Under the pieces are notes generated by a model that saw only the letters and a list, made by a program, of their open reading frames with translations, did no database searches and was not told the DNA's origin. Made by a program: the position numbers and the translations under genes. Shown here piece by piece: positions 7,767 through 46,698 of a stretch of DNA of 46,698 bases. The stretch is taken from IMG/VR virus record IMGVR_UViG_3300028399_000010, positions 1 to 46,698 of that record, one strand, 5' to 3'. The DNA comes from a virus. Its lineage: Duplodnaviria; Caudoviricetes. The stretch's first letter is position 1, and every line of letters starts with the position of its first letter.

Positions 7767-7841
7767 TTCTATACGGGTTCTAATATTAAAAACTAAAAAA
7801 AGTCTTATATAACAAATATATTAGGCTTATATAATTAGGAG

Positions 7842-8345
7842 TTGGCGCAAATGAGAAACAACTGGAAGAATGTAGAAAGAAGGATAGCAAAAAGATTTGG
7901 AACCGTCAGAACGCCATTGTCAGGTAGTAATTCAGGGATAACAAAATCTGATACATTGCATAAATTTATATTTAATGAAATTAAACATGGTAATAGTTCA
8001 TATATGATTAATGCAATATGGAAAAAGTGGGAAAAGGATGCTATTATAATGGTTAATAGCTCTGAGTATAATGATTCCGAACTTGTAATTATCCATATAG
8101 ATAATATCCTATTCAGACAGGCAAAGAAAGCAATCATAATTAAAAGAAAGAAACCTGCAATTACTGAACTATTTATACAAACAATGTATAGAGCAAGACT
8201 TGAAAATAAAATACCAATAGTATGTTTGCATAAGAAAGGCAAGCAAGGATTCTTGGTTGTGGTAAAACCAAGTGATATTAGTAAGATTAAAAATTACCTT
8301 GAGCTTGCAAGTAAAGGTAAAGATTTCACACTAAAAATGGAGTAA
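7842..8345 (+). CDS. Holliday-junction resolvase-like PD-(D/E)XK nuclease
   Basis: WKNVERRIAK, RTPLSG, SD...EIK; IPIVCLHKKG...LVVV; AGGAG SD fits TTG 7842 or ATG 7851. Confidence 0.75.
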   Translation: MAQMRNNWKNVERRIAKRFGTVRTPLSGSNSGITKSDTLHKFIFNEIKHGNSSYMINAIWKKWEKDAIIMVNSSEYNDSELVIIHIDNILFRQAKKAIIIKRKKPAITELFIQTMYRARLENKIPIVCLHKKGKQGFLVVVKPSDISKIKNYLELASKGKDFTLKME

Positions 8346-8347
8346 AA

Positions 8348-8674
8348 ATGAGCAAATCTAAATTTGAGTTTGTTGATAATATTGATAATAGCATTATAAT
8401 GTTTTCAAAGAATAGGGCTGAAACTCTCAGCAATTTAATGTTTACCGGAAAAGGTAAAGATTCAGAAGTTGCCAAATCAAGATATTCACAGAAACTTGAG
8501 GTAGTTATCCGTGAACTTATACTTGAATGGGAAAAGTCAAAAGCCATTTCGGTCCAACAACTAAGAAGTGAGGTTATGCAATTAAACACTGAAAGTTTAG
8601 AATCATTGTATAATGATATTAGTACTGAAATAATTAGGAGAAATAATGAAACGAGCGGTCAGGATAAAAAGTAG
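8348..8674 (+). CDS. hypothetical protein
   Basis: GGAG SD; helical composition. Confidence 0.65.
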   Translation: MSKSKFEFVDNIDNSIIMFSKNRAETLSNLMFTGKGKDSEVAKSRYSQKLEVVIRELILEWEKSKAISVQQLRSEVMQLNTESLESLYNDISTEIIRRNNETSGQDKK

Positions 8675-8714
8675 GTTGGCGTTGGCTGTGAACCAAAAAC
8701 GATCGCTCGTTTCA
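8647..8714 (+). other. 14-bp inverted repeat enclosing 40 nt
   Basis: TGAAACGAGCGGTC(8647-8660)/GATCGCTCGTTTCA(8701-8714), one G-U pair. Confidence 0.6.
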
Positions 8715-8736
8715 AAAATAATAGGAGAACAGCGAA

Positions 8737-8970
8737 ATGAATCATAAAAGACTTAAAATACTTGGGAAAAATAAGACTGAACTTACAGCTATAAACATTG
8801 GAAAAGTTATACTGTTTTCATATGGAGTTCCAGTTGCTTGCTATGATATTTATAATGGGAAAGAATATAAAACAGATAAGTTTTTTAGCAAGACAACTCA
8901 AAAACATATCAGCCAATGGATTCCAAATGCTGAAACAAAGCCACAGTCATACTTTGACAACCTACTGTAA
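8737..8970 (+). CDS. conserved small phage protein (SYxxPVA...SxTTxKHI family)
   Basis: FSYGVPVA and FSKTTQKHISQW; AGGAG SD. Confidence 0.8.
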   Translation: MNHKRLKILGKNKTELTAINIGKVILFSYGVPVACYDIYNGKEYKTDKFFSKTTQKHISQWIPNAETKPQSYFDNLL

Positions 8971-8984
8971 TCAAGGAATAAAAA

Positions 8985-9350
8985 ATGAAACTAATTGACA
9001 ATGATGGAAATAGACTAATTCTTGGTGATGATGGTATTTATTTAAAACTGAAGGGTGATCCAAGCACCAGAAAAATACTATCATTCACAGGTGGTAAAAT
9101 AGTTAAATATGTTAAAAAGAAAAACATATTTAAACCAAAGAATGGAAAGGAGATGATTGGTTTCAACTATTACTCATTAAAACTCCTAAAAGAAAGAACC
9201 AAACTCAGAACAATATATGTTAGATATGGAAGAACAATGAGGTCAATTAATATTGATGAGTTATTGGAGCATGGAAAATTTTTACATTTCCTAAAATCAG
9301 GATTTGAACTGCAAACATTTTATATGTTAGAAAATATGAATGAAGTATAA
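8985..9350 (+). CDS. basic hypothetical protein
   Basis: AAGGA SD; Lys-rich. Confidence 0.7.
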   Translation: MKLIDNDGNRLILGDDGIYLKLKGDPSTRKILSFTGGKIVKYVKKKNIFKPKNGKEMIGFNYYSLKLLKERTKLRTIYVRYGRTMRSINIDELLEHGKFLHFLKSGFELQTFYMLENMNEV

Positions 9351-12800: not shown

Positions 12801-13560
12801 CAGTTCTATCGTCCTCAACAATATAACCATCTATAACTGCTTTATTTTGTTTATTGTATATAACTTCATGTAATGTAACATCTATAGGCTCACCACGAAA
12901 ACCACCTTTTTTACGTTTTCCTTTTATCTTTAATCCACTTATTGGTTTTAAAATAAGGTCATTTAAATCAATTATTCCTGACTTTTCAAGCGAATCAGTG
13001 TATGCTCGTACATTTCTATTAATAATTCTGAAGCGTTCTCTATACTGTAAAACGAACTGCTGTATTCTATCATTAAGTAAACCAGCTTCTCTGACTATTT
13101 TTGATACTTTCCCTGTTTTATCAAGTCTGAATGAAACATAATCAGGATAAGCCTGGCTTTTCATTGTCTTGTTCATCTCTTTATTTTTCAAGTATATAGC
13201 ATCTTTAGTCAGTTTAACTAAAGCCTTCATAGTTCTTGTTCCAACAAACGCAAAGTCAATAACCTTACCACCAATTTTCTTTGGTAAATAATCAGCAAAA
13301 GCGTCAATAATATCCTCAGGGTCTACAGTCATAAATCCAAGTGTAAACCTATTTGCAACATCAATTGTATGGTCAAGTAATAGATTATACAATTCCTTAT
13401 GATATTTATAAACATCCTTGTAATTATCATCCTTTATATCTTCAGGATTGAGTGGCTTACCAATGAAATTTTCAATGGCAGTTTTAGCCCTTAGTTCATA
13501 GTCATTGTTATACAACTTGTATAATTCGTTTACCGAATCTGATCCTGGTTCACACTTCAT
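9844..13560 (-). CDS. large internal virion (ejection/cargo) protein, 1238 aa
   Basis: Last gene of the late region; helical, hydrophobic C-terminal segments; single Cys at residue 3. Confidence 0.75.
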   Translation of the reverse strand: MKCEPGSDSVNELYKLYNNDYELRAKTAIENFIGKPLNPEDIKDDNYKDVYKYHKELYNLLLDHTIDVANRFTLGFMTVDPEDIIDAFADYLPKKIGGKVIDFAFVGTRTMKALVKLTKDAIYLKNKEMNKTMKSQAYPDYVSFRLDKTGKVSKIVREAGLLNDRIQQFVLQYRERFRIINRNVRAYTDSLEKSGIIDLNDLILKPISGLKIKGKRKKGGFRGEPIDVTLHEVIYNKQNKAVIDGYIVEDDRTGTKMIVNGNDFWFPRGKSSRDYIRDKIFESGTTHLIDELGHGEVRKLMPVDVRKASAEDIRKIKWMLKASAVKGKLDQKSPYIHTKRVGEYNINYVMVKQGEDDIGEVYNTYIVGHEDTAGNKVYYFDPFNNYNPNTRDSDVMLNINDLTEVIRDETGVARTVKAFQPGFYRASDQEKFGPKLNKFMQPIKDSTDKEYVGFEYMKKQPPDSLVETEITDDGYNNIWEALHEMRSIFDELWDVSVKWTNSTNADIVKWFKKAHSTMMKGLDDLVEKGELDADLYERRKIAAENIFRDLQTLGVENRMSYDEETNEVSSLAMFMSKKSENYFPSMFLDKVYDKFVLDSINEIDSKLEFEELSEKEAMELEKARQDFMDTQEIFSGNRTVLEQRPLMYKHRKPFTNDMLRRKDNEAKMAYLDILFNRLLKNRLLADTVQAITEIQEIYGKEKPPFEQIRYMTNQVKSAMGDPYLDAKFTLGPLSFNVGSPNIAKRMNQIFGTDRWTAESVDTLFKHAKGFITTLTLGSWPALTNRGQVANPIIIFGLNMYKQAIERIEGPDADKWTYIADYGGATNQLTFLNDIILTTVSDLHWNDALFYQFPKVPLPVPHPNNLLDYGKLLLMDKKMFIEKGHPLIDGFIDRMLQRRLKKSRSMKEEEEIKYLIELRKEIREGWINLAKADKNSNNTEFIKKNYIKIVGKVKDTQLKKFISWKLTWFFNGAGLGENPNKWFTFVGTESQNRKIDYIMGVLAADAMGNLGSKKNDKSTIVPGIKDRFLSPDAAFAGRLSVESHQFNMAQVHAPEAGKGFGQTIRQFKDYPLKQSFVFGRNVRQAFMAGSDTYTDMMTRLLKATTDVLNPAKENLVGEKLDYEALSMARMILSRGLGTIMSALVGNLSKVDYILRSFGGRLPATAMRGIESPVLSFPVNIAIRWLLFSLFAGDDDKDRKKAENAIRRTAEDTMRLLIPVYLSLFASYMLRVSDFFGDKE

Positions 13561-16500
13561 TTATTTACATGATTCCTTTAAATTTTCAAATAATTTACTT
13601 ACATTAGCAACATGCTCAGATGGTTTAATTTCATTCATATTCTGTGTAAGTTCATTATGCCATAGTTTCAAATAACCTTTCAAAACACCACCATCCATTA
13701 ACTGGAATGGAAGTATCCTGCCAACGTTTTTTATTCTAAACCGCTCACCCTCTCTTTTTATTCCCGTCAGAAAAAACAACGAAGCAAGAGACCTTTCGTT
13801 CTTGCTCATACTTTTAAACTCATCATAATATTTTTCTACAAACTTCTGAAAACTTTCATTATATTCATAAGTAACATATTTATTATCTTCATCTTTAATA
13901 AATTGTGTTTCATTACTATAAATTTTGTAAAACTCATTACCAACTTTATTTGCAAAATTATAGGCATTTCTAACTTCTTCTTTTGTAAAACCATCTATAT
14001 TTGCATCACCAATAATTATGCCATCTCTACTCATATTTTTAACAATTTTATCAATAACGTTGTAATGAGCATTCCTCTCAAATTTAGATTCTGCTATTAT
14101 TAGCGGAACAATTTTACTCCTGATAATATTTTTAATAATAGCCCTTGTTCTTAATTTTTTATGTTCTTCACTTTCTATTATATTTCCAGCCTCATCTTTC
14201 TTAATCTTAGAATAATACTTATCAAGCTCAGCATCAAGCCTTTTATTATATCTCTCCATCTGCACCGCTGGTTGTTTTAATAAATGTTCAGTAACACCAA
14301 CTTTACCATTAACAGAAATTTCTTCTATCGAAGAATTAAGATATGGATACTTTCTAATAATAATATCACGTATCATTTTGCCTTGTTCTTTTGCTGGTAA
14401 ACTTAACAAATTATTAAGCTCATAACTCTTATGAAATATTTCCTGAAAAGTCATTTGCCTTCCATCCATACGACCATTTTTAAAGTTTGAATCATTAAAC
14501 GTTGAAACAATGGCAGATAATGCAATCGCAGTTGGCTTATCAAAACCTTCGATATTTTCACCATCAACTTTAAACATTTTCCTCAATATAAATGTTTTAT
14601 TATAACCAATAGCACCAAGAAATCCATGTTTAGGATTATCTGCGGCCATTTGCAAGTATATTGACAAGCTATTTTCAAATGTAGTTGCTAAATATGCTTC
14701 ATCCTCATTAAGAAAATCTTGGTATGTTTCTATTTTGCTTCCATCTCCACGAATAATAAAATCACCTTCAACATTAAACTTATTAAACTTTTCTTCTGTC
14801 AAACCTTTTTTATCAAGTCTCAATGGTATTGAAACAATCTCATTTGGATCTCTAACTGTATATTTTTTACCATCTATAACAACTGAAAAATCTTTCATGA
14901 ATAATTTATTCGATACCATCTTAGCAATAATTATTTGAGCAAGTGCACCATCTGACCTTGCATTATTGGCCATTATTCTTGCAACATCATCCCTGGATGA
15001 TGATGAGGTACCTTCCATTACATCTGGATATATATCTAAATCACCAGATGAACTTCTATCTCTTGACCTGAATTCGTCACTATTTATCAATGCTTTAATA
15101 GCATTCGCAAAACCCTTATCACTAAAAATCTCTATATTTGCTGAGTCCCCATCAAAATCTGCTTGTAATGGGCCTTTTACATCATCATTATGTAAAAATA
15201 TAACATCACCATGACCTCTTTCAACAAACCCTTTTAACTTATATACACCAACTGCAGATGCTTTTTCAATAGGCGGTTTTGATAGCAATACTTCAAAATT
15301 ATTATACTTCAGCCAGTTATTTAGTGAATCAATATTCCAGTCACTATTACGATTCAAACCCATCTTCTTTAACACTGCATTTACAGCAGCAACATTATCA
15401 ATACTAACAGCAAATTCTTTTGGTTTTAGACTAATATCAACCATTGGCTTTAAGTATAGCTTAGTTCCATTTCCTGGATTCCTAAGTTTAAACATACCAT
15501 CAATAATAAATGAATTTGCAAGGTATGGAAGAATTTGGACTAAATACTGTCTATTAATTAAACCTTCACCATCTTTAACTAATCCAGTGATATATTGCAG
15601 CTCAGTTGGAAGTTTTCCTTCAACTGGTTCTCTGTAAATTAAATCTCTCAAAACACTTGGAAGGTCATTTGCCTCAAGTATTTTATCCATATACTTTTTT
15701 GTAACAATATTAATATGTTTCATAACAGCTCTTTTAGCTGTTTTAAATAAATCCTGGTTAATTTTTGGACTCCAAACCTGTTCCCACCATGCTAATGGAT
15801 GAGATGGATTTGTTTTCGCTTTTTCACCAGGAGTGATTATAACCTTTGTAGCATTTTCTGGTAACATGTGTATTTTATAAAAATCAGTAAACTTTCCAGA
15901 AACCTGTTTTGCTTCATTTGTACTTATTAAAGAATCAAACTCACCTATAACTTTTCCATTCTTGTCAAGATGTTGAAAATAGGTTCTTCCATCTTCATAC
16001 TCAGCAACCCTTGCAAATGGGGTATTCTCACCTTTTTTATAAAATTCCATTCCTAATAATGGTGTCATATCTAACATCTTAACACCAATATAATCCTTCA
16101 AATCATCTGATAAATATTCTTGAGCTGTTTTGATTACAGAAAGCTCTGTACCATCATCTGTTTCTGGTGTTCTCCCAATAGCTTCTTGAATGTCAAACAT
16201 TCTCTTACTTCCAGTTATTTTCCAGCCATCAAATAAATTATATTCACCTACTTCATATGATACATTTTTATCTCTAACCTTTACTATAACATCATCGGCA
16301 TTAATAAGCATTATAAATTCTGGGCCAGAACCTATTGGAACAAAGCCTTCAGTTAAACTTATTCTCAATCTATTAAAAGTATCCTGAACTGACTTTTCTC
16401 TCATCAAGTAATCTAAACCTTTAATCTTTTTCATTACCTGATGTTTACCATAAATCTGATTCCAAACCTTTGGATTATAACTTTCAATAACCTCACCATC

Positions 16501-19500
16501 ATTAATAAAATTCTTATAATGTTCCTCAGTTATTGTTTTCCCAATTTCACTTTTTAAGTTTTGAACAATCTCATCTTTTGTCATATTCAGAACATCTTTT
16601 GGGACACCGCTTATTATTAGTTTTGAATCTCCAGCCTTACCAGTTGAACCAAGAAAAAATAACAAGCTATTGTTTCCATCATAGCTATCAAGAAACATTC
16701 TGTCAAGCTTCTTAATGAAAGCAGATGAAAATTCAATAGATGCTTTTCTATAAAAATCACGTTTCTTATTATATTTAACAATATCCTTAGCAAGCAAATA
16801 AATTACATTTGTAAAACCTCTATCCTCAATAAAATTGGTTGACTTAGTATCTGGCAACTTTCTACCAGTTGCAAGTTCTGTGCCATCATTAACAGAAAGT
16901 CTTGGATTGACAACTTTATTCCATCCAATAGCATCAAAAACAAGATTTAAATATAGTCTCCCTTCATTTCCAATTTTCTTTGCTACTGGTATTTTATAAC
17001 GTTGTTTTACAAAAAACTCTTTAGTTTTATTAACAAACTGTGTACTATTCTCAAGGTATTTTGCATTTGGAAAATTCTTGTTAATATAATCAATATACTC
17101 AGCTTTGAATGAATCATAATTTGTATTTTTCTTTGCTATATTAACAAGTTCTGAATGTTGAGTTGGTGTAACATAGGAATTAAATATATTACTAAAATAG
17201 TTATCTAAGTAAACAGTCCCATCCGCTGTATTCTCAACTCCAAGTCCATCTTCTTCAATACCATCATCATTTGTGACTTGTTCGGTTCTTTGGTATACTA
17301 TTTCTACATCATTTGTTGTTGATATTTTAGTTTCAAGTTTTGAATACTTACCTTTAAAAAAGTTTTCAGCAAGAACTTGAGTTGCAGCATCCTTATCACC
17401 AAATAATGTTTTTACCTTTAACCAGAATTGTTTAAGCCATTGTGATAACCAATTCTTAGCTTTCTTATCCTGGATTCTATTTGCATAATACTCACCAACA
17501 TATTGTGTCAGCTTTTCCATGCTTCCAAATCTTTCAACAGCCATTTTGACAATAGACTGGTCACTAATAGAATTTGCTATAACATGAAAATACTCATGAG
17601 GTGCAGTATCAACTCTACCATCAGTAGTTGACCATTTTACTGTATTCCCAATGGCAACACCAACTGATTCAACACCATCAGTTTCTATAACACCTCTAAC
17701 CTTTTCTGTGTTTACAAATGGGTATTGTTCTTTAAGTCTGGTCTCAATTTTTACAGCAAGCTCTGGTTCTTCAGATATTAATGGTTGTTTACTTTGCCCC
17801 TCAATTTGAAAATTAACATCTAAATTTGAAATATCACCGATAACATTCCTTGCTTCTTTAGTTTTTTGCTCAACTGAAGTCTGTTTACCTTCACCCTTTA
17901 AAGACTTACTTGTGGTTGTGACTAAATTTTTTACCGCAAGCAAAACAGATTCAGATATATTTTTACCGTCTTCATCATTTACCTTTGAAAGTTCATCAAG
18001 AAATGAAGAATTTGTTATTGCCCCAGCAACAAACTCATTATCACTTTTAAAATAGTAATAATTTTTCTTGATATTTTTCATTGCTGTTATTCTAAGGCTT
18101 GAAATCTTATGCCTGAAAGCTAACTCTTTATTTGTTGGGGTTGCATTACTGAATGCGCCCTCTGTTATGATATGCGAAATTTCATGCAAGAATGTTTCAA
18201 CCTGCTTTTTTTGACTTACATTATTATTTAAAAAGACACCATGATCAAGTCCATAAACATAAGAACCGGCCATTTCTTTTCCATTAACTATAACTTTGTC
18301 AGCAAAATAAACTTTCGTACTTTTTGTATAATCATTCAAGACATTATTTAGATATGAAGCAATTGGAGTATTAATATCTTTTAACACAGTCCCAATAGTA
18401 CTTTCTTTCGTTATATTTTTATACTTAAGCCCAGCTTCATATGCGGTTTCTTTCAAAGCATCTGTAAGTTTTGCCACTTGCTCAGCTGGTTTAAACTCAA
18501 ATCTCATTAATGAAATTTTAGTTTTTTTACCATTAATAGTTATAGACCTATCACCATACTTAACAAATCCCTGCTTTTCCCAAAATCCTTCAGAACCAGG
18601 ATTAGCTTCAACTTCTATAAACTTTCTACCTTGAGCTTCTTTTAATCTCTTAAAAGCATTAACAATTTTTGTTCCTATTCCTTGTTTCTGCAACTCACTT
18701 GAAATTGATATTGTACCAATTCTATTTTCATAACCCTTCTTCGTTGGGGCACGTTCTATTTTAACTCCATCAATCTTTGACAACTCATCAATTTCAGACT
18801 GAGCTTGTATAATTACCTTTGCTTTTTCTGCATTACTTAGCTTGCTTATATTACTTACAGTAATTTTATTTTGTTCTATAGTTTGCTCAGGTAATTGCTC
18901 CTGTGAAACTATCTTAACAATTTTACCAGCTTTTAAATCTACCCACTTCTGTAAATCTTCAACAGATTGACCAATAAACTTTTTAAGAATAGGAGCAGCA
19001 CCATCAATCTTTCCATTTTTAACATTGACTTTAGCATTTATACTACCAATTTGTACTTGGTATGTTTCTTTTGCTTGTTTTTTTATAATCTCATCTTTTT
19101 CTTGAGTGCTCTGAACAGGCTTAAATTCAAGCTCACTAACATCTTCCCTTTTCTGCCTCAAAGTCTCAACATAATCGAGGTCAGGCTCAATATCATAATC
19201 AAGCACAGCCTCAGCTTCCATTGCATCAAGTTCTTCTTGTGGTAACTCAATATCTGGTTCATATACAGGTGTTTCTTCACTATAATATGGATTAAATTCA
19301 GGTACATAATCGCTATAACCAGGGTCTGATTTTACATTTGATAATGCTTCTGCTGCATCATAAGAATCTATAATTTTAACAAGGTCATCAATACTATTAA
19401 CCTCAATATTCCTCATTCCCTTTTTGAATGCAGCAATTTCAATATCTTTTAGAACTTTCTTTGCCGCCTCTTCATCAGTTGCTTCAAGCTCTTTTATATT

Positions 19501-20981: not shown

Positions 20982-22385
20982 TTACCTTACTCTAAGTCCC
21001 ATTATATTACTGACAGGAACGTTAAGTGTGTCATTGTAAAGACTCAATGTATCACTATTTGATTTTGTTGAAGTTGGTTGTTTCTCAACTTGAGATAGTG
21101 TTCCAGATGTAGTTTCAATCTCACCAAACTCACCAAGCCTATTCTTTAAGGTTTTATCCAGCTTTCTATATAAGTCTATAGCATCAATAAATGCTTTGTA
21201 CCTATTCTTTTCTTGGTCATCAGAAATAAACTCAAAAGTCTTTTCCATATCAAGCTTACTCACCTTGTCTGAATTTTCAGCCCACATATCAGCAAACTTT
21301 ATTAAAGCATCATTAAGTGAATATGCCTTAACATTACCATCCTCATCATAAACAGTCTTGGTTCTTCCAGTCTTTTCAGCTTCTTCAATAATATCTGCAA
21401 ATTTCTTTAACTCTGATGGAATTGAGAAATCATGTCTATCTTTCTGTATTCTATACATTGTATAAGCAGTCTGTTTCATGACTTCCTTGATATTATCAAC
21501 AGTTCCAGTATCACCTCTCAAAACCTTAGCGGATACTCTTGGAATCTTACTGCTGTAACCACCCAAATCCATAGTATTATTAAGTTTAGTAACTAAATTA
21601 CTTATTACTTCATTTTCAGACTTAGTCTCAATTTTCTTTTCAGCAGCAATAGCTTTGTCAATACGTCTTGACTCAGCTTTTTCATTTAAAACATCCTGCG
21701 CTTTTATACTTGGTATTCCTTCTATAATTCCTAATGCCCTCCTGACATCAATATCAGCAACATCAGATGCTTCCTTATACAAAGTCTTCTCAATTGGGCC
21801 AATATTCCTACCAAATTGAACACCTGGCTTATTTTTATCAACATCTTTCTGTGAAATTCTACCAAGAACAAATAACTCATCAAGAGTTTTTCCAACCATT
21901 TGACCTGCCCTTGCTAACATTTGCTGGTCATATATTCCAGATTCATCATATTCCTTCTGAAACCTTTTTAATGTATTCTGTATAACATCATAAGATTCTT
22001 TAAAATCCCCACCCTTTGAAGCTACAGCCTTAACAGTATTCTCTAACTCATTCATTGATTGTTCAAGTCTTTTCCTGTTTTCAAGCCTTTGACTTAAAAC
22101 TGACCTTGTAACATCAATAAGTGGTTTTACATATTCTGAACCCTCAGAACTCATACTATCAAATGCTTTCATCATCTCATTCATATCTGAAGATGATGTT
22201 GAGCTATTGAAAAATCTCTGTGATAAATTGTCAAGTGCACGAGCAACATACATATCTTGAACTCTAAGATTTTGCTGTCTATATTGCTGTGCTTGCTCAA
22301 TAATTGAACTTGCAGTCCTTGATAAACTATCAAGTGCTCTTGTTACTGGGTCTTGTTCTATTTGTATTGTTCTTGGAAGTGCCAT
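20982..22385 (-). CDS. internal virion/ejection protein, 467 aa
   Basis: Between pilot-type genes and the giant cargo gene; helical, no Cys. Confidence 0.65.
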   Translation of the reverse strand: MALPRTIQIEQDPVTRALDSLSRTASSIIEQAQQYRQQNLRVQDMYVARALDNLSQRFFNSSTSSSDMNEMMKAFDSMSSEGSEYVKPLIDVTRSVLSQRLENRKRLEQSMNELENTVKAVASKGGDFKESYDVIQNTLKRFQKEYDESGIYDQQMLARAGQMVGKTLDELFVLGRISQKDVDKNKPGVQFGRNIGPIEKTLYKEASDVADIDVRRALGIIEGIPSIKAQDVLNEKAESRRIDKAIAAEKKIETKSENEVISNLVTKLNNTMDLGGYSSKIPRVSAKVLRGDTGTVDNIKEVMKQTAYTMYRIQKDRHDFSIPSELKKFADIIEEAEKTGRTKTVYDEDGNVKAYSLNDALIKFADMWAENSDKVSKLDMEKTFEFISDDQEKNRYKAFIDAIDLYRKLDKTLKNRLGEFGEIETTSGTLSQVEKQPTSTKSNSDTLSLYNDTLNVPVSNIMGLRVR

Positions 22386-23134
22386 TATGAATTATACACC
22401 CATTGATTTTGTTCTAAGCTCCAAACCCATGATGTTCCATTTGAGTCAGTAAAAGTTTGACCAGGGTATGGATTGGATGGAAATTGAGTTCCACCTTGTT
22501 CTGCTTCTCCTTGCTGTGGAATACCACTACCACCCACACCAGCACCAACTCCAGAACCAACGTTGGTACCACCACCCATACCTGTCATGCCGCCATCACC
22601 TTCTATACCTCCACCCATACCAGCTATGCCAAGAGCAGTGATCCCAAAGTTAGTATCGAAATTGATTTTATTATAAGCATCTGGTGTAAACGCACCCATA
22701 TTTGAAAGGTTTGCTAAAGCAGAATAAACATCCCTTTCATAATCTTTTCTTACTCCATAAATATCAGATTTTAAACCAGTTCTCAATGAAGACAATGCTG
22801 ATTCATAACCACTGAGTAATGATTTTCTTCCTTCGCTAACTTCACTATTTATCGCACCAGAACCAGCAAATCCAGATTTTGCCGCACTTAGCTCACCTCT
22901 CCTCATTAATGATGAAAGTGATGTTCCAGCTTGAAGCCTTTGCTCACCAAGTTGATTCTGATATTGCTCAGTTCTAAGATTTTCTGAAGTTGGGTCATAA
23001 GTTTGAATGTACATACCATATTGTTTTTCAAACTTATCTTGACTGAACCCACTGACACCACTACCAAATATAGCGCCAATTTGGCCTGGTGTCATTCCTA
23101 TTAATTTATCTATACTTGGTCTATCTGTAGGCAT
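22385..23134 (-). CDS. Gly-rich ejection (pilot-type) protein
   Basis: SGFAGSG helical region, Gly-rich linker, no Cys. Confidence 0.65.
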   Translation of the reverse strand: MPTDRPSIDKLIGMTPGQIGAIFGSGVSGFSQDKFEKQYGMYIQTYDPTSENLRTEQYQNQLGEQRLQAGTSLSSLMRRGELSAAKSGFAGSGAINSEVSEGRKSLLSGYESALSSLRTGLKSDIYGVRKDYERDVYSALANLSNMGAFTPDAYNKINFDTNFGITALGIAGMGGGIEGDGGMTGMGGGTNVGSGVGAGVGGSGIPQQGEAEQGGTQFPSNPYPGQTFTDSNGTSWVWSLEQNQWVYNS

Positions 23135-23809
23135 TTATAATCCCTTTAACTTAAAAAGATTAGTTTCAAGACTATTATAAACCGGTTCACCAAGTGAAAA
23201 TGTTTTACCAATTCTAAGGTTTTCAGAAGTTGGAACAGCAGTACCAAGAACCTTCGATGAAGTAAACCCGCTATTTTCTGCTGAGAATGGCTTATTACTC
23301 AAATACTTAAAATAATCACTAACCTTGCCACCACTGTTAACAAAGTTTACAAGCCCACCTTTGCCACCATCCCACTTTGTCCAATAATCTTTATTTAGAA
23401 TAGCTCCAAAACCCTCCTTATCACCCAAAGCTCTCATTCCACCACTTGCTCCAAATGCCTGTAAACCAGTTTCAGCAATACCAAGAACATTTCCAACATT
23501 AACAGACCTGTCATAATTTTCTAACTGCCTATTTAAATCCTTCGCAATATCCATATTAAATTTACCATTGCCAACTTTTTTATTTTCACTTTTCATTAAA
23601 AAGTCAGCACCAATACTTAAAGCGTCACCAAGAAACATTCCTGCAGGCCCAAATAATGTTCCACCAATAACTTTGCCGACACCCTTTAAAAGAGATTTAA
23701 TCTTTTCTTCATTTTTTCTTGCTTTTTTAGCACTTTCCAACTGTTTAGTTTTAACATAATCATCATACCTAACATCTCTTATAAGTAGTGCGTTTTCAAA
23801 TGCTCCCAT
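23135..23809 (-). CDS. ejection protein with Gly-zipper hydrophobic segment
   Basis: GVGKVIGGTLFGPAGMFLG; AGGTGA SD; position like podoviral DNA-injection genes. Confidence 0.65.
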   Translation of the reverse strand: MGAFENALLIRDVRYDDYVKTKQLESAKKARKNEEKIKSLLKGVGKVIGGTLFGPAGMFLGDALSIGADFLMKSENKKVGNGKFNMDIAKDLNRQLENYDRSVNVGNVLGIAETGLQAFGASGGMRALGDKEGFGAILNKDYWTKWDGGKGGLVNFVNSGGKVSDYFKYLSNKPFSAENSGFTSSKVLGTAVPTSENLRIGKTFSLGEPVYNSLETNLFKLKGL

Positions 23810-30911: not shown

Positions 30912-33836
30912 CTAACTTTGAGCTTGCTGTGGAGCAACTCCAGAAAAAGCCATCAATTCTTGTTCAAACTCAGATTTCAACAACTGATAATCAGCAACTA
31001 TTGATTGTGCTCTTGATTCATAAGTCTGAGCAACTGATATAGCTGTTTGTGATTCCTGTAAGTATGAAACAGCTTTAGACAAATCTGCCTGAAATTTAGT
31101 TCCCTCATAATTAACTTCAGCAGTGTACTCATTTATCAAAACTTGTGACTTCGATGAATATTCTGATATTAAAGTCTGATTTTTTGTTGAATATTCAGAT
31201 ATAAAAGCATTAACTTTATTTTGATATTCAGCAATTTCAGAATCACGCAAAGCAGAAAGCTCACCAAGATAAGCCCTCACTTTCTCAGCATAAGACGCAA
31301 CCTGAGCGTTATATTCTTGTATCCTTGCTTGTGAGATAGCACTATACTCAGAAATAGCAGCATTTATTTTTTCTTTATATTCATTTATGAACGCATTTAC
31401 TTGTTGCTGATAAACCTGCGTCTCTCTCTCAAGTTTAAACTGAGCTTCACTAATTCTATAATTTACATTAGCTGTAAATTCTTGAACCTTATTCTGTATA
31501 TCGGCTTGATAGTTTGCAATCATAGCAGTAGCTTTTGCCTGATATTCAGATATATTAACCTGATTCTGCTGAACAAATTTATCAATAACTTTTCTCATAT
31601 TAGCCTGATAAATTGAAACATCACTTTGACTTTCAGCAGTATAAGTATCGACAACCTTTCTAATTTGCTGTGCATAACTTTGAATATCTGCCTGGTATTG
31701 ACCTAACGCCTCTTGAATATCAGCACTGTATTTATCCAAATCTCTTTGTTTTTGGATATTCCACTCATTAACATCGGCTTCCATCTCAGCCCTAAACTCT
31801 TGAATTTGACGCTGAACATTAGCATTATATTCACCAATTTTTGCTGTTGACTCAGCCTGATATTCATTTATTACAGCATTAACAACACCATTATACTCAG
31901 CTATTTCAGATTGAACTTGACTCTGCCATTTTTGAAGTTTAAACTGAACTTCCTCATTAATCCACTCATTTACAGTCGCATTCACTTGTTGCTGATATTT
32001 TGCAATATCATTTCTATACTGCGCTATCTGTGCTTCAAGGTCATTTCTATTATCATTAGCTTTTGCAGAATACGCTTCAACATCTGCTCTTGCAGCGGCA
32101 ACCTCTTTTTGGAGTTCTGCCTGATAACGGCTTATTTCAGCATTAAATTCACCAAGTGCTTCTTGAGTTTCAGCTTCAAATTCTCTCAACTGTGCAAGTT
32201 CATTTTGAACTGCTGAATTTGCCCTGTTAATTTCCTGCCTTGCGGCATTAATTGTTGACTCAGATAATTCAACATCATCATCACTTAAACGACCCTGAAC
32301 GGATTTTGAACTTCCTAAAGCATCTCCACCGCCAACATTAGCACCATCATCAATTAATTTTTCTGCTTTAGTAAGAGCATCAGAAATTGTTGTAGTATCA
32401 AATGAAAAAGACGATGGGCCGACATAAGTTGGAAGTGTCCCAGGTGTTATAACATCATTTGGTTCAGCCCCAGCACTTGTATATGAAATTGAGTTAGATG
32501 GAACTGAAATTCCGCTCAAATCCAAATCAGTAAAACTTGGCGCAGTAGTAACTGTTAAGGTTGGCAATGTTATATCACTTGGGAGAGTCAAAGTTCCTGG
32601 ATTTGTAATTGTTTTATTTGTTATTGACAAACTACCAATAGTCGGTGGTGTTGGAGCAGAATATGAAGGTACTGAAATACCAGTAAAATCAGCATTAGCA
32701 TAGCTCAAATCTGATGGTAAAGAATCAAGAGGAACAGTAACTAACGTTGGTAAATTTATCGCATCTGGCATAGTTAAAGTACCAGGACTTGTTATTGTTA
32801 TAGAACTCATCCCTTCACTTGGTAAAGATGTCATCTCAACTATACTTGAAAGTGTTTGTGAACCAATTAAAATAGTGCCAGTTTCAGCAGACGCAAATAC
32901 CACAGTAAAAGCATCTACGCTTGAATGATTAACTTCACCATCAATCATATCACCATTACTATCTATAACCTGAACTATTGGATAATAACCAAGACTATGA
33001 GTTACTGTAACTGATGTCTGATTAGTAAAAGATTCTGTCTTTTGAGTTGTTGCAAGAGAAAGTGATGGAAGTACAATAACTTCATTAAACGATGGAAATG
33101 AATCTGTAGCAGATGATAAAGTAAGAGTTGGTAATGAAGTCATACTGACGAGAGTAAGAGTCGGTAAAGAAGGAGTGGCTATAGTACTAAACGTAGGCAA
33201 CGCTGATTCAAAGTCAGCAAGAAATCCGGTGCCTGCAGTTGTTATTTTCTCAATTTCAGTTTGAGATTGCCTGCGAATATAAGCAAGTTCTCTCAACTTA
33301 ATTTGCATTGCTACCCAGTTAATTACTGAACCATCAAGTTCTTCAGGAAATGTCATTCCAGAAATAGAACTTACAGATGAAACAGCACTAACATCAACAC
33401 TTGGAAATTTAGGATGAGAAACCTTTCCCTGTTCAGATGATGTTGGCGTTGGTAAAACATAAATAGTTCCATTTTGTTTATAAACTTTAGGTTCAAACGT
33501 AGTTGCATAAAGAATATCATTTGGGTCTTGCGCCCTACCAGCTAACTGAAATGGAATCTGTACACACTCTCTATCTCTATTCCCATCATTTCTAACAACT
33601 CCAAGTATTTTAACAGTATCAAAATTACCACTTCCAACCGCAAGCCCATTACCATCACTAATTGTTGATTCAACCGCAAAAGCCCATAACATTTCAGGAT
33701 TATATAGCCACACCTTATTGATTATAGCTCTAACAGCATGAGTTGCAAAATCATCAAGCATTTCCTGGTCAATACCAATGTCACCAGAAACAGTATCTGC
33801 AACTTTATCAAGAATCTGTACATCAAGAGTTTGCAA
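30912..33836 (-). CDS. expanded head-tail adaptor/neck-like protein with S/T/P linker and 11-mer coiled-coil repeats
   Basis: N-terminal PKVYKQNGTIYVLPTP...FPEELDGSVINW adaptor-like pattern; IxEY repeats every 11 aa; TTG start. Confidence 0.65.
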   Translation of the reverse strand: MQTLDVQILDKVADTVSGDIGIDQEMLDDFATHAVRAIINKVWLYNPEMLWAFAVESTISDGNGLAVGSGNFDTVKILGVVRNDGNRDRECVQIPFQLAGRAQDPNDILYATTFEPKVYKQNGTIYVLPTPTSSEQGKVSHPKFPSVDVSAVSSVSSISGMTFPEELDGSVINWVAMQIKLRELAYIRRQSQTEIEKITTAGTGFLADFESALPTFSTIATPSLPTLTLVSMTSLPTLTLSSATDSFPSFNEVIVLPSLSLATTQKTESFTNQTSVTVTHSLGYYPIVQVIDSNGDMIDGEVNHSSVDAFTVVFASAETGTILIGSQTLSSIVEMTSLPSEGMSSITITSPGTLTMPDAINLPTLVTVPLDSLPSDLSYANADFTGISVPSYSAPTPPTIGSLSITNKTITNPGTLTLPSDITLPTLTVTTAPSFTDLDLSGISVPSNSISYTSAGAEPNDVITPGTLPTYVGPSSFSFDTTTISDALTKAEKLIDDGANVGGGDALGSSKSVQGRLSDDDVELSESTINAARQEINRANSAVQNELAQLREFEAETQEALGEFNAEISRYQAELQKEVAAARADVEAYSAKANDNRNDLEAQIAQYRNDIAKYQQQVNATVNEWINEEVQFKLQKWQSQVQSEIAEYNGVVNAVINEYQAESTAKIGEYNANVQRQIQEFRAEMEADVNEWNIQKQRDLDKYSADIQEALGQYQADIQSYAQQIRKVVDTYTAESQSDVSIYQANMRKVIDKFVQQNQVNISEYQAKATAMIANYQADIQNKVQEFTANVNYRISEAQFKLERETQVYQQQVNAFINEYKEKINAAISEYSAISQARIQEYNAQVASYAEKVRAYLGELSALRDSEIAEYQNKVNAFISEYSTKNQTLISEYSSKSQVLINEYTAEVNYEGTKFQADLSKAVSYLQESQTAISVAQTYESRAQSIVADYQLLKSEFEQELMAFSGVAPQQAQS

Positions 33837-46492: not shown

Positions 46493-46698
<206 letters not shown>

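Follow-up and report, generated by a model that had tools for sequence, protein, structure and literature searches.

Paired terminal cysteines at the junction of two adjoining putative phage ejection proteins: a candidate disulfide in place of a peptide bond

The window analyzed here, which is the whole stretch of 46,698 nucleotides (nt) of a tailed virus (Caudoviricetes; positions 1 to 46,698 of IMG/VR record IMGVR_UViG_3300028399_000010), encodes five putative cargo open reading frames (ORFs), the two largest of which adjoin on the minus strand: a 2472-amino acid (aa) predicted RNA polymerase (P0002, 13561..20979) and a 1238-aa partner (P0001, 9844..13560). The single cysteine (Cys) of the one, at its C-terminal end, and the single Cys of the other, at its N-terminal end, are conserved among homologues, present at every split between the two parts and gone from every fusion examined. 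The reading favored here, to which a probability of about 0.6 is assigned, is that Cys2471 of the polymerase protein and Cys3 of the partner form an interchain disulfide, that this bond takes the place of the peptide bond where an ejection polyprotein has been split, and that it acts during ejection; that a disulfide joins the two proteins, whatever its role, is considered very likely.

Cysteine content and layout of the junction

On the minus strand, positions 13569-13552 read TGT AAA TAA ATG AAG TGT, i.e. Cys-Lys-stop-Met-Lys-Cys. The penultimate residue of the 2472-aa protein, Cys2471, is encoded at 13567..13569 (codon 13569-13567) and residue 3 of the 1238-aa protein at 13552..13554 (codon 13554-13552), with the TAA stop (13563-13561) and the ATG start (13560-13558) adjoining each other between them (13558..13563). 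The cargo ORFs of 224, 249, 467, 2472 and 1238 aa contain 0, 0, 0, 1 and 1 Cys, respectively, a total of 2 in 4650 aa, as a preliminary description of this DNA had stated. Their Cys content is 0.04%, versus 0.79% (72 Cys in 9120 aa) in 38 other ORFs of the window chosen as likely genes; at the latter rate approximately 36.7 Cys are expected where 2 are observed (Poisson P(≤2) = 8e-14). Two Cys placed at random would lie within seven residues of both meeting ends with a probability of approximately 5e-6. The remaining junctions of the cargo operon, those between its smaller genes among them, have no Cys.

Conservation at gene junctions and loss in fused proteins

A phmmer search with residues 1294-2472 of the polymerase protein returned 137 proteins including the query, and addition of P0011 and P0013 gave 139 rows: one without a profile match, three fusions, 28 that end before the C-terminal end and 107 unfused proteins that reach it. 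These rows are relatives and not independent draws, most of them 22-34% identical to the query. A Cys lies within the last seven residues of 105 of the 107, as the last residue in 26 and the penultimate one in 62 (88 within the last two), and in 0 of the 28 that end earlier; other Cys number just 10 in 178,579 residues, three of them the N-terminal Cys of further-split forms. The pattern is kept at 23-55% identity, and the residues that flank the terminal Cys are not conserved. Conservation of the C-terminal Cys and scarcity of internal Cys, both of which the preliminary description had proposed as tests, are thus observed. On the partner side, all 17 aligned partners that have an N-terminus carry a Cys in the Cys3 column. 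It lies anywhere from residue 3 to residue 7, yet 30-32 residues ahead of a conserved Gly in 13 of 13 proteins measured, so its position appears to be set by the fold and not by the start codon.

The two sides can be compared directly at 16 distinct polymerase|partner loci (the window, L002, L146, L148 and L150-L161; L149, a copy of L150, and L147, which is cut before the junction, were omitted), which were collected by means of motifs that contain no Cys. A first scan with DNA patterns contributed three relatives among the 120 loci listed, further locus scans of viral sequences and genomes turned up no relatives, and the pairing leaves out the partners of P0011, P0013, P0021 and P0055 and of most hits known as proteins only. 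Both Cys are present at all 16 junctions and, with extra splits included, at 18 of 18 intact junctions, another proposed test with a positive outcome; the proteins concerned contain these 36 junction Cys and three others in 55,563 aa. The gap from stop to start varies from -11 to +3 nt, the stop is TAA, TGA or TAG, and the two genes are in frame at just five of the 16 junctions. The in-frame TAA-ATG arrangement of the window is therefore incidental: the preliminary description was correct that only TAA separates the two genes in frame, but the weight that it placed on this arrangement is unsupported.

In three homologues (P0019, P0052 and P0053; 3651-3902 aa) that match both family profiles end to end, the two parts are fused, and these proteins contain 0 Cys. 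They fall at two tree positions, each next to split forms with Cys, and a single fused clade was rejected by the approximately unbiased (AU) test (p-AU 3e-36, with 24 of the 81 aligned rows and a tree without an outgroup root), so that the predicted loss of both Cys upon fusion is seen in three of three proteins and two lineages. The fused P0019 is 57% identical to the split P0021, which ends in Cys-Gly. Measured through both Cys, the distance between conserved anchors amounts to 78-115 residues in the 13 split pairs, a range that brackets the 95-114 residues between the same anchors in the three fused proteins. Splits can also occur further upstream: three homologues that start after the HExxH region of the polymerase protein carry a Cys at position 4-5, and at L160 and L161 an extra gene upstream of the polymerase gene ends in Cys while the downstream pair is kept, which makes a second Cys pair.

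Comparison with known ejection systems

The closest precedent is the cryo-electron microscopy structure of the cyanopodophage A4 (Anabaena phage A-4L), in which the C-terminal helix of gp27 is inserted in gp26 and a disulfide joins gp27 Cys1715 to gp26 Cys5 (PMC12002296); its authors state that the bond further stabilizes the docked helix and suggest a chain reaction upon ejection (PMC12002296). These are the only Cys of gp27 (1717 aa) and gp26 (1114 aa). As in the window, the A4 pair is encoded by neighboring genes in the same orientation that close the ejection block and are its largest, with smaller Cys-poor genes upstream and a C-terminal helix ahead of the Cys; the single Cys is third from the C-terminal end of gp27 and at residue 5 of gp26, compared to 2471 of 2472 and 3 in the window. 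Unlike the polymerase protein of the window, gp27 lacks a DxD[GI]D motif, and the bond was seen in A4 whereas it is predicted for the window phage. The A4 report concerns one bond in one phage, and its accessible text contains no conservation analysis and no rule about splits and fusions (PMC12002296).

A similar pattern is found in two crassviruses, as the preliminary description had suggested for this order. In phi14:2, g067 terminates in a Cys, g066 carries Cys3 and Cys2179, and g065 carries Cys3; gp47, gp50 and gp49 of crAss001 show the same terminal Cys. The gene for gp47 is on the other strand, from which it follows that the rule acts on proteins and not on gene spacing. The phi14:2 gp67-gp66-gp65 and crAss001 gp47-gp50-gp49 blocks resemble that of the window in their gp66-like fold, DFDxD motif and gp47-related HExxH region, and differ from it in how the block is divided: the window has two genes, with the first two parts joined into one, L160 and L161 have three, and P0019, P0052 and P0053 have a single one. 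Profile searches detected no homology to phi14:2 gp65/gp66, nor of the partner to gp65/gp49. A preprint on gp66 reports that some crassvirus polymerase blocks are fused into a single polyprotein (bioRxiv 10.1101/2020.03.07.982082), and fused forms are expected to be cut by proteolysis (bioRxiv 10.1101/2020.03.07.982082; PMC10172136); the accessible text of neither paper mentions Cys of the cargo. The crAss001 atlas assigns disulfides to tail and vertex proteins only, and suggests that the cargo unfolds in part (PMC10172136). Two close Cys occur in smaller cargo proteins of phi14:2 (g069, 369/378, L143), crAss001 (gp45, 390/398, L144) and A4 (gp28, 1036/1039, L145); the smaller cargo proteins of the window have none.

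The window phage is not placed in Crassvirales because its head genes find no crassvirus and the genomes of its relatives are approximately 56 kb, as estimated from contigs of 39.5, 42.8 and 49.9 kb rated 71, 76 and 88% complete (the contig of one relative is 111 kb). The window is 46.7 kb, whereas phi14:2 and crAss001 have genomes of 100.4 and 102.7 kb. Neither portal, terminase nor capsid protein had a crassvirus match by tblastn in a collection that contains phi14:2 and crAss001, and a three-sequence capsid profile did not match crAss001 gp32. As judged from sequence comparison, then, the Cys pattern occurs in a lineage of smaller genomes without a detectable crassvirus head-protein match. 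Positions 9844-46698 of the window and loci L137-L142 and L146-L161 represent a group of mid-sized phages that seems not to have been classified. Most of their contigs are 40-58 kb long, and they combine a QDE-1/gp66-type polymerase with a P22-like portal and an SU10-like capsid protein; head proteins are 36-54% identical among three group members and have no close match in INPHARED.

Near-total suppression of Cys in ejected proteins is also shared with Schitoviridae (N4 gp50-52, DEV gp71-73), where it has been ascribed to passage through the periplasm (PMC11445570). In these phages, by contrast, the giant polymerase is one T7-type chain without Cys, whereas the window phage keeps one Cys per chain end under strong selection. 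No mention of cysteine or a disulfide was found in the accessible text of the N4 paper (PMC13434306), and redox-dependent disulfides in virions are listed for other phages (PMC13576161). Beyond the A4 bond and Cys suppression, no statement of a general rule about splits and fusions was found in the literature searched, which largely excluded subscription papers as well as supplements (the A4 supplementary alignments and crAss001 Extended Data Table 2); as far as these searches reach, the bond and the suppression are already published and the general rule apparently is not.

A probable disulfide in place of a peptide bond

Gain of both Cys at splits, loss of both at fusions, their position at the chain ends and the matching span together make a disulfide that replaces a peptide bond the simplest account of these observations. 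Because phage assembly occurs in the reducing cytoplasm, docking would probably come first and oxidation after lysis: translation of genes that abut or overlap would supply the two proteins, which would associate non-covalently as the particle is assembled, with the C-terminal helix of the upstream protein packed on the N-terminal helix of the downstream one, and the bond would close once the virion has left the reducing cytoplasm. When the cargo unfolds for the tail channel, non-covalent contacts would be lost and the bond would hold the partner on the tail of the polymerase protein, so that the cargo could pass as a single ordered thread of approximately 3700 aa in a 1:1 ratio. Other Cys may have been purged to avoid wrong cross-links in the capsid or periplasm, and the thioredoxin or glutaredoxin systems of the host could then free the pieces. 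The existence of fused relatives makes it probable that such release can be dispensed with. The interpretation in the preliminary description, a disulfide or metal link between the two termini, is partly supported by the conserved terminal Cys, the fused forms that lose both and the A4 precedent, though not by the in-frame TAA; its suggestion that the bond sets packaging stoichiometry is doubtful, because assembly occurs in the reducing cytoplasm and the bond more likely forms after lysis.

Several observations count against this interpretation. For the window phage, both the bond and the ejection role are deduced from sequence, and the A4 precedent is an analogy, as six-sequence family profiles gave no significant match to A4 gp26 or gp27. 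Two of the 107 homologues lack the terminal Cys: P0143, a 266-aa piece, and P0048, which also has two internal Cys and a decayed catalytic motif (CNFNTN for xDxDGD) and is possibly a dead or repurposed copy. P0039 and P0075, slightly below the cut-off for reaching the C-terminal end, are likewise without Cys, and their inclusion gives 105 of 109. Independent fusion events number two, on a tree that is not outgroup-rooted; two of the 16 junctions (L157 and L161) require a GTG start deduced from the reading frame; crAss001 gp50 has one internal Cys, and its last Cys is eight residues from the end; and three partners (L150, L151 and L156) carry another Cys at residue 25-27 for which no mate is apparent. 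This second Cys (L149/L150 from 8687, L151 from 8342 and L156 from 1405) is 21-22 residues past the first. Complex prediction with partner residues 1-420 and the last 300 residues of the polymerase protein gave a score of 0.00 twice, with alignments of 17 and 70 rows, and speaks neither for nor against the bond.

It is unlikely that the disulfide is real but a mere staple of the packed core in the free virion, with no threading role and perhaps broken before or during exit. The A4 paper does call its bond further stabilizing, and its authors also propose the chain reaction (PMC12002296); stabilizing disulfides are common in virions, as in the crAss001 tail and among the examples in PMC13576161. 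A staple could sit anywhere on the interface, however, whereas at every split the Cys occupy the very termini, follow the order of the chain and have a span that matches the fused linker. A metal ion such as Zn, coordinated by the two Cys together with partner residue His54 and one more ligand, is judged improbable as the bridge. It could arise in the cytoplasm during assembly, and His54 (13399..13401, minus strand; part of a YxxH motif with Tyr51, 13399-13410) is found in 15 of the 17 split partners and in none of the three fused forms; the two split partners without it (L158 and P0149), however, keep their Cys. In the model of the partner, moreover, a 29-residue helix begins at Cys3, with His54 past its other end (a distance deduced from secondary structure), the residues next to the Cys are not conserved, and the conserved His2305 of the polymerase protein remains in fused forms. 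The disulfide is favored over metal because the A4 structure resolves a disulfide of like geometry. The YxxH motif may bind the free C-terminus of the upstream protein or help to close the bond.

Terminal Cys serve trans-splicing, ligation, thioether or lipid chemistry in other settings, and fused forms would have no need of such a step, yet the idea that these Cys are substrates of another covalent reaction (trans-splicing or ligation that yields a peptide bond, thioether formation or attachment of a lipid) has very little to recommend it. Ligation requires Cys at position 1, whereas here the N-side Cys falls between positions 3 and 7 and the C-side Cys lies 0 to 6 residues from the end, with variable flanks; no signal peptide precedes the Cys, no intein family was matched in Pfam or PHROGs, and no modifying enzyme was recognized next to the genes. 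Ligation and lipidation were rejected on these grounds. Pairing of each Cys with the same Cys of an adjacent copy, as homodimers in a ring, is slightly less credible still: the cargo is packed as rings in A4 and crAss001 (PMC12002296; PMC10172136), but joint appearance at splits and joint loss at fusions would be left unexplained. Chance, or a remnant of stop-codon readthrough that yielded one protein, is scarcely conceivable; it would suit the window, where TAA alone lies between in-frame genes, and is refuted as a general account by the junction survey (11 of 16 junctions out of frame, any of the three stops), with conservation down to 23-30% identity also against it.

Returning to the disulfide in place of a peptide bond, a broader form of this reading is offered tentatively and with somewhat less than even confidence: across unrelated lineages of short-tailed phages the cargo may be functionally one thread, which evolution can divide into separate genes only by adding a terminal Cys pair. 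Such a pair would be a redox-switchable substitute for a peptide bond: it would form its bond after lysis, be drawn through the tail with the cargo and separate again in the cytoplasm of the host, releasing the injected RNA polymerase and perhaps activating it. If true, terminal Cys would give the order of ejection straight from genomes. The question of how megadaltons of cargo leave the capsid through a narrow tail in the correct order would have a testable answer two codons long, and an isolated structural detail of A4 would become a rule (gain at splits, loss at fusions) as well as a sequence marker of chained cargo proteins. The finding also draws attention to apparently unclassified mid-sized phages with a QDE-1/gp66-type polymerase.

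The predicted RNA polymerase and its partner

The 2472-aa protein comprises a hydrophobic segment in its N-terminal region, a GNAT-like domain, two HExxH motifs, a predicted two-barrel RNA polymerase core and a C-terminal helix ending in Cys-Lys. Residues 1294-2472 (13564..17100, minus strand) were modeled by AlphaFold2 with a predicted local distance difference test score (pLDDT) of 91.9 and a fold like QDE-1 and phi14:2 gp66: the top Foldseek matches (E values from 4e-11 to 9e-10) were QDE-1 entries (7y7t, E 4e-11) and 6vr4 (E 2.5e-10), the phi14:2 virion polymerase, with template modeling (TM) scores of 0.3-0.4. Sequence searches of solved structures with three alignments gave no significant match. 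The predicted catalytic site is the DFDGD motif at residues 1941-1945 (15145..15159, minus strand; a DxDxD motif), whose three Asp residues are conserved in 79, 80 and 79, respectively, of the 81 homologues aligned. On the strength of the model, the protein is predicted to be a single-chain two-barrel RNA polymerase of the QDE-1/gp66 type. Its GNAT acetyltransferase-like domain (residues 751-812; 18544..18729, minus strand) matches Pfam PF13673 over the curated cut-off (E 5.5e-7), and its two zincin-like motifs are HEISH (residues 932-936; 18172..18186, minus strand) and HEYFH (residues 1128-1132; 17584..17598, minus strand). Among 14 reference proteins, the HExxH region of the family profile matches residues 1717-1893 of crAss001 gp47 (E 1e-11). 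The N-terminal half of the polymerase protein, which is variable, contains the GNAT-like domain and both HExxH motifs, an arrangement also known from polyvalent phage proteins; a [PA]HExxH-type motif is present in 28 of 49 long homologues.

The 1238-aa partner starts with Met-Lys-Cys, is predicted to be mostly helical and equals the C-terminal third of the fused homologues. In BFVD, its model (pLDDT 71) matches the folds of unnamed phage proteins and of C-terminal fragments of giant phage proteins. Foldseek gave no match to it in the Protein Data Bank (best E 0.23; core proteins of T7 and phiM1 at E 0.6-1.5), and VIA-align found generic helical bundles alone (best Z 9.2 over 84 residues).

Genome setting

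The window is a phage contig with a terminase (phrog_38), a P22-like portal, an SU10-like capsid protein, a DnaB helicase and a DNA methylase, as identified with Pfam and PHROGs, and contains no direct terminal repeat. The five cargo ORFs stand at the end of the structural operon, the usual site of ejection-protein genes in short-tailed phages; operon position and Cys depletion suggest that all five encode ejection proteins packaged in the virion. The three smaller, Cys-free ORFs, likely ejection proteins by position, are on the minus strand at 20982..22385 (467 aa), 22385..23134 (249 aa) and 23135..23809 (224 aa, with a weak match to PF20721 under the curated cut-off). In L137 an additional Cys-free ORF of 391 aa (7820-8995) follows the partner gene on the same strand. 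A 974-aa ORF of the structural operon (30912-33836) has long helical apolipoprotein-like repeats (PF01442, under the cut-off) and one Cys. The end of the window (46607-46698) consists of approximately 92 A's after an AT-rich stretch and is likely an assembly artifact.

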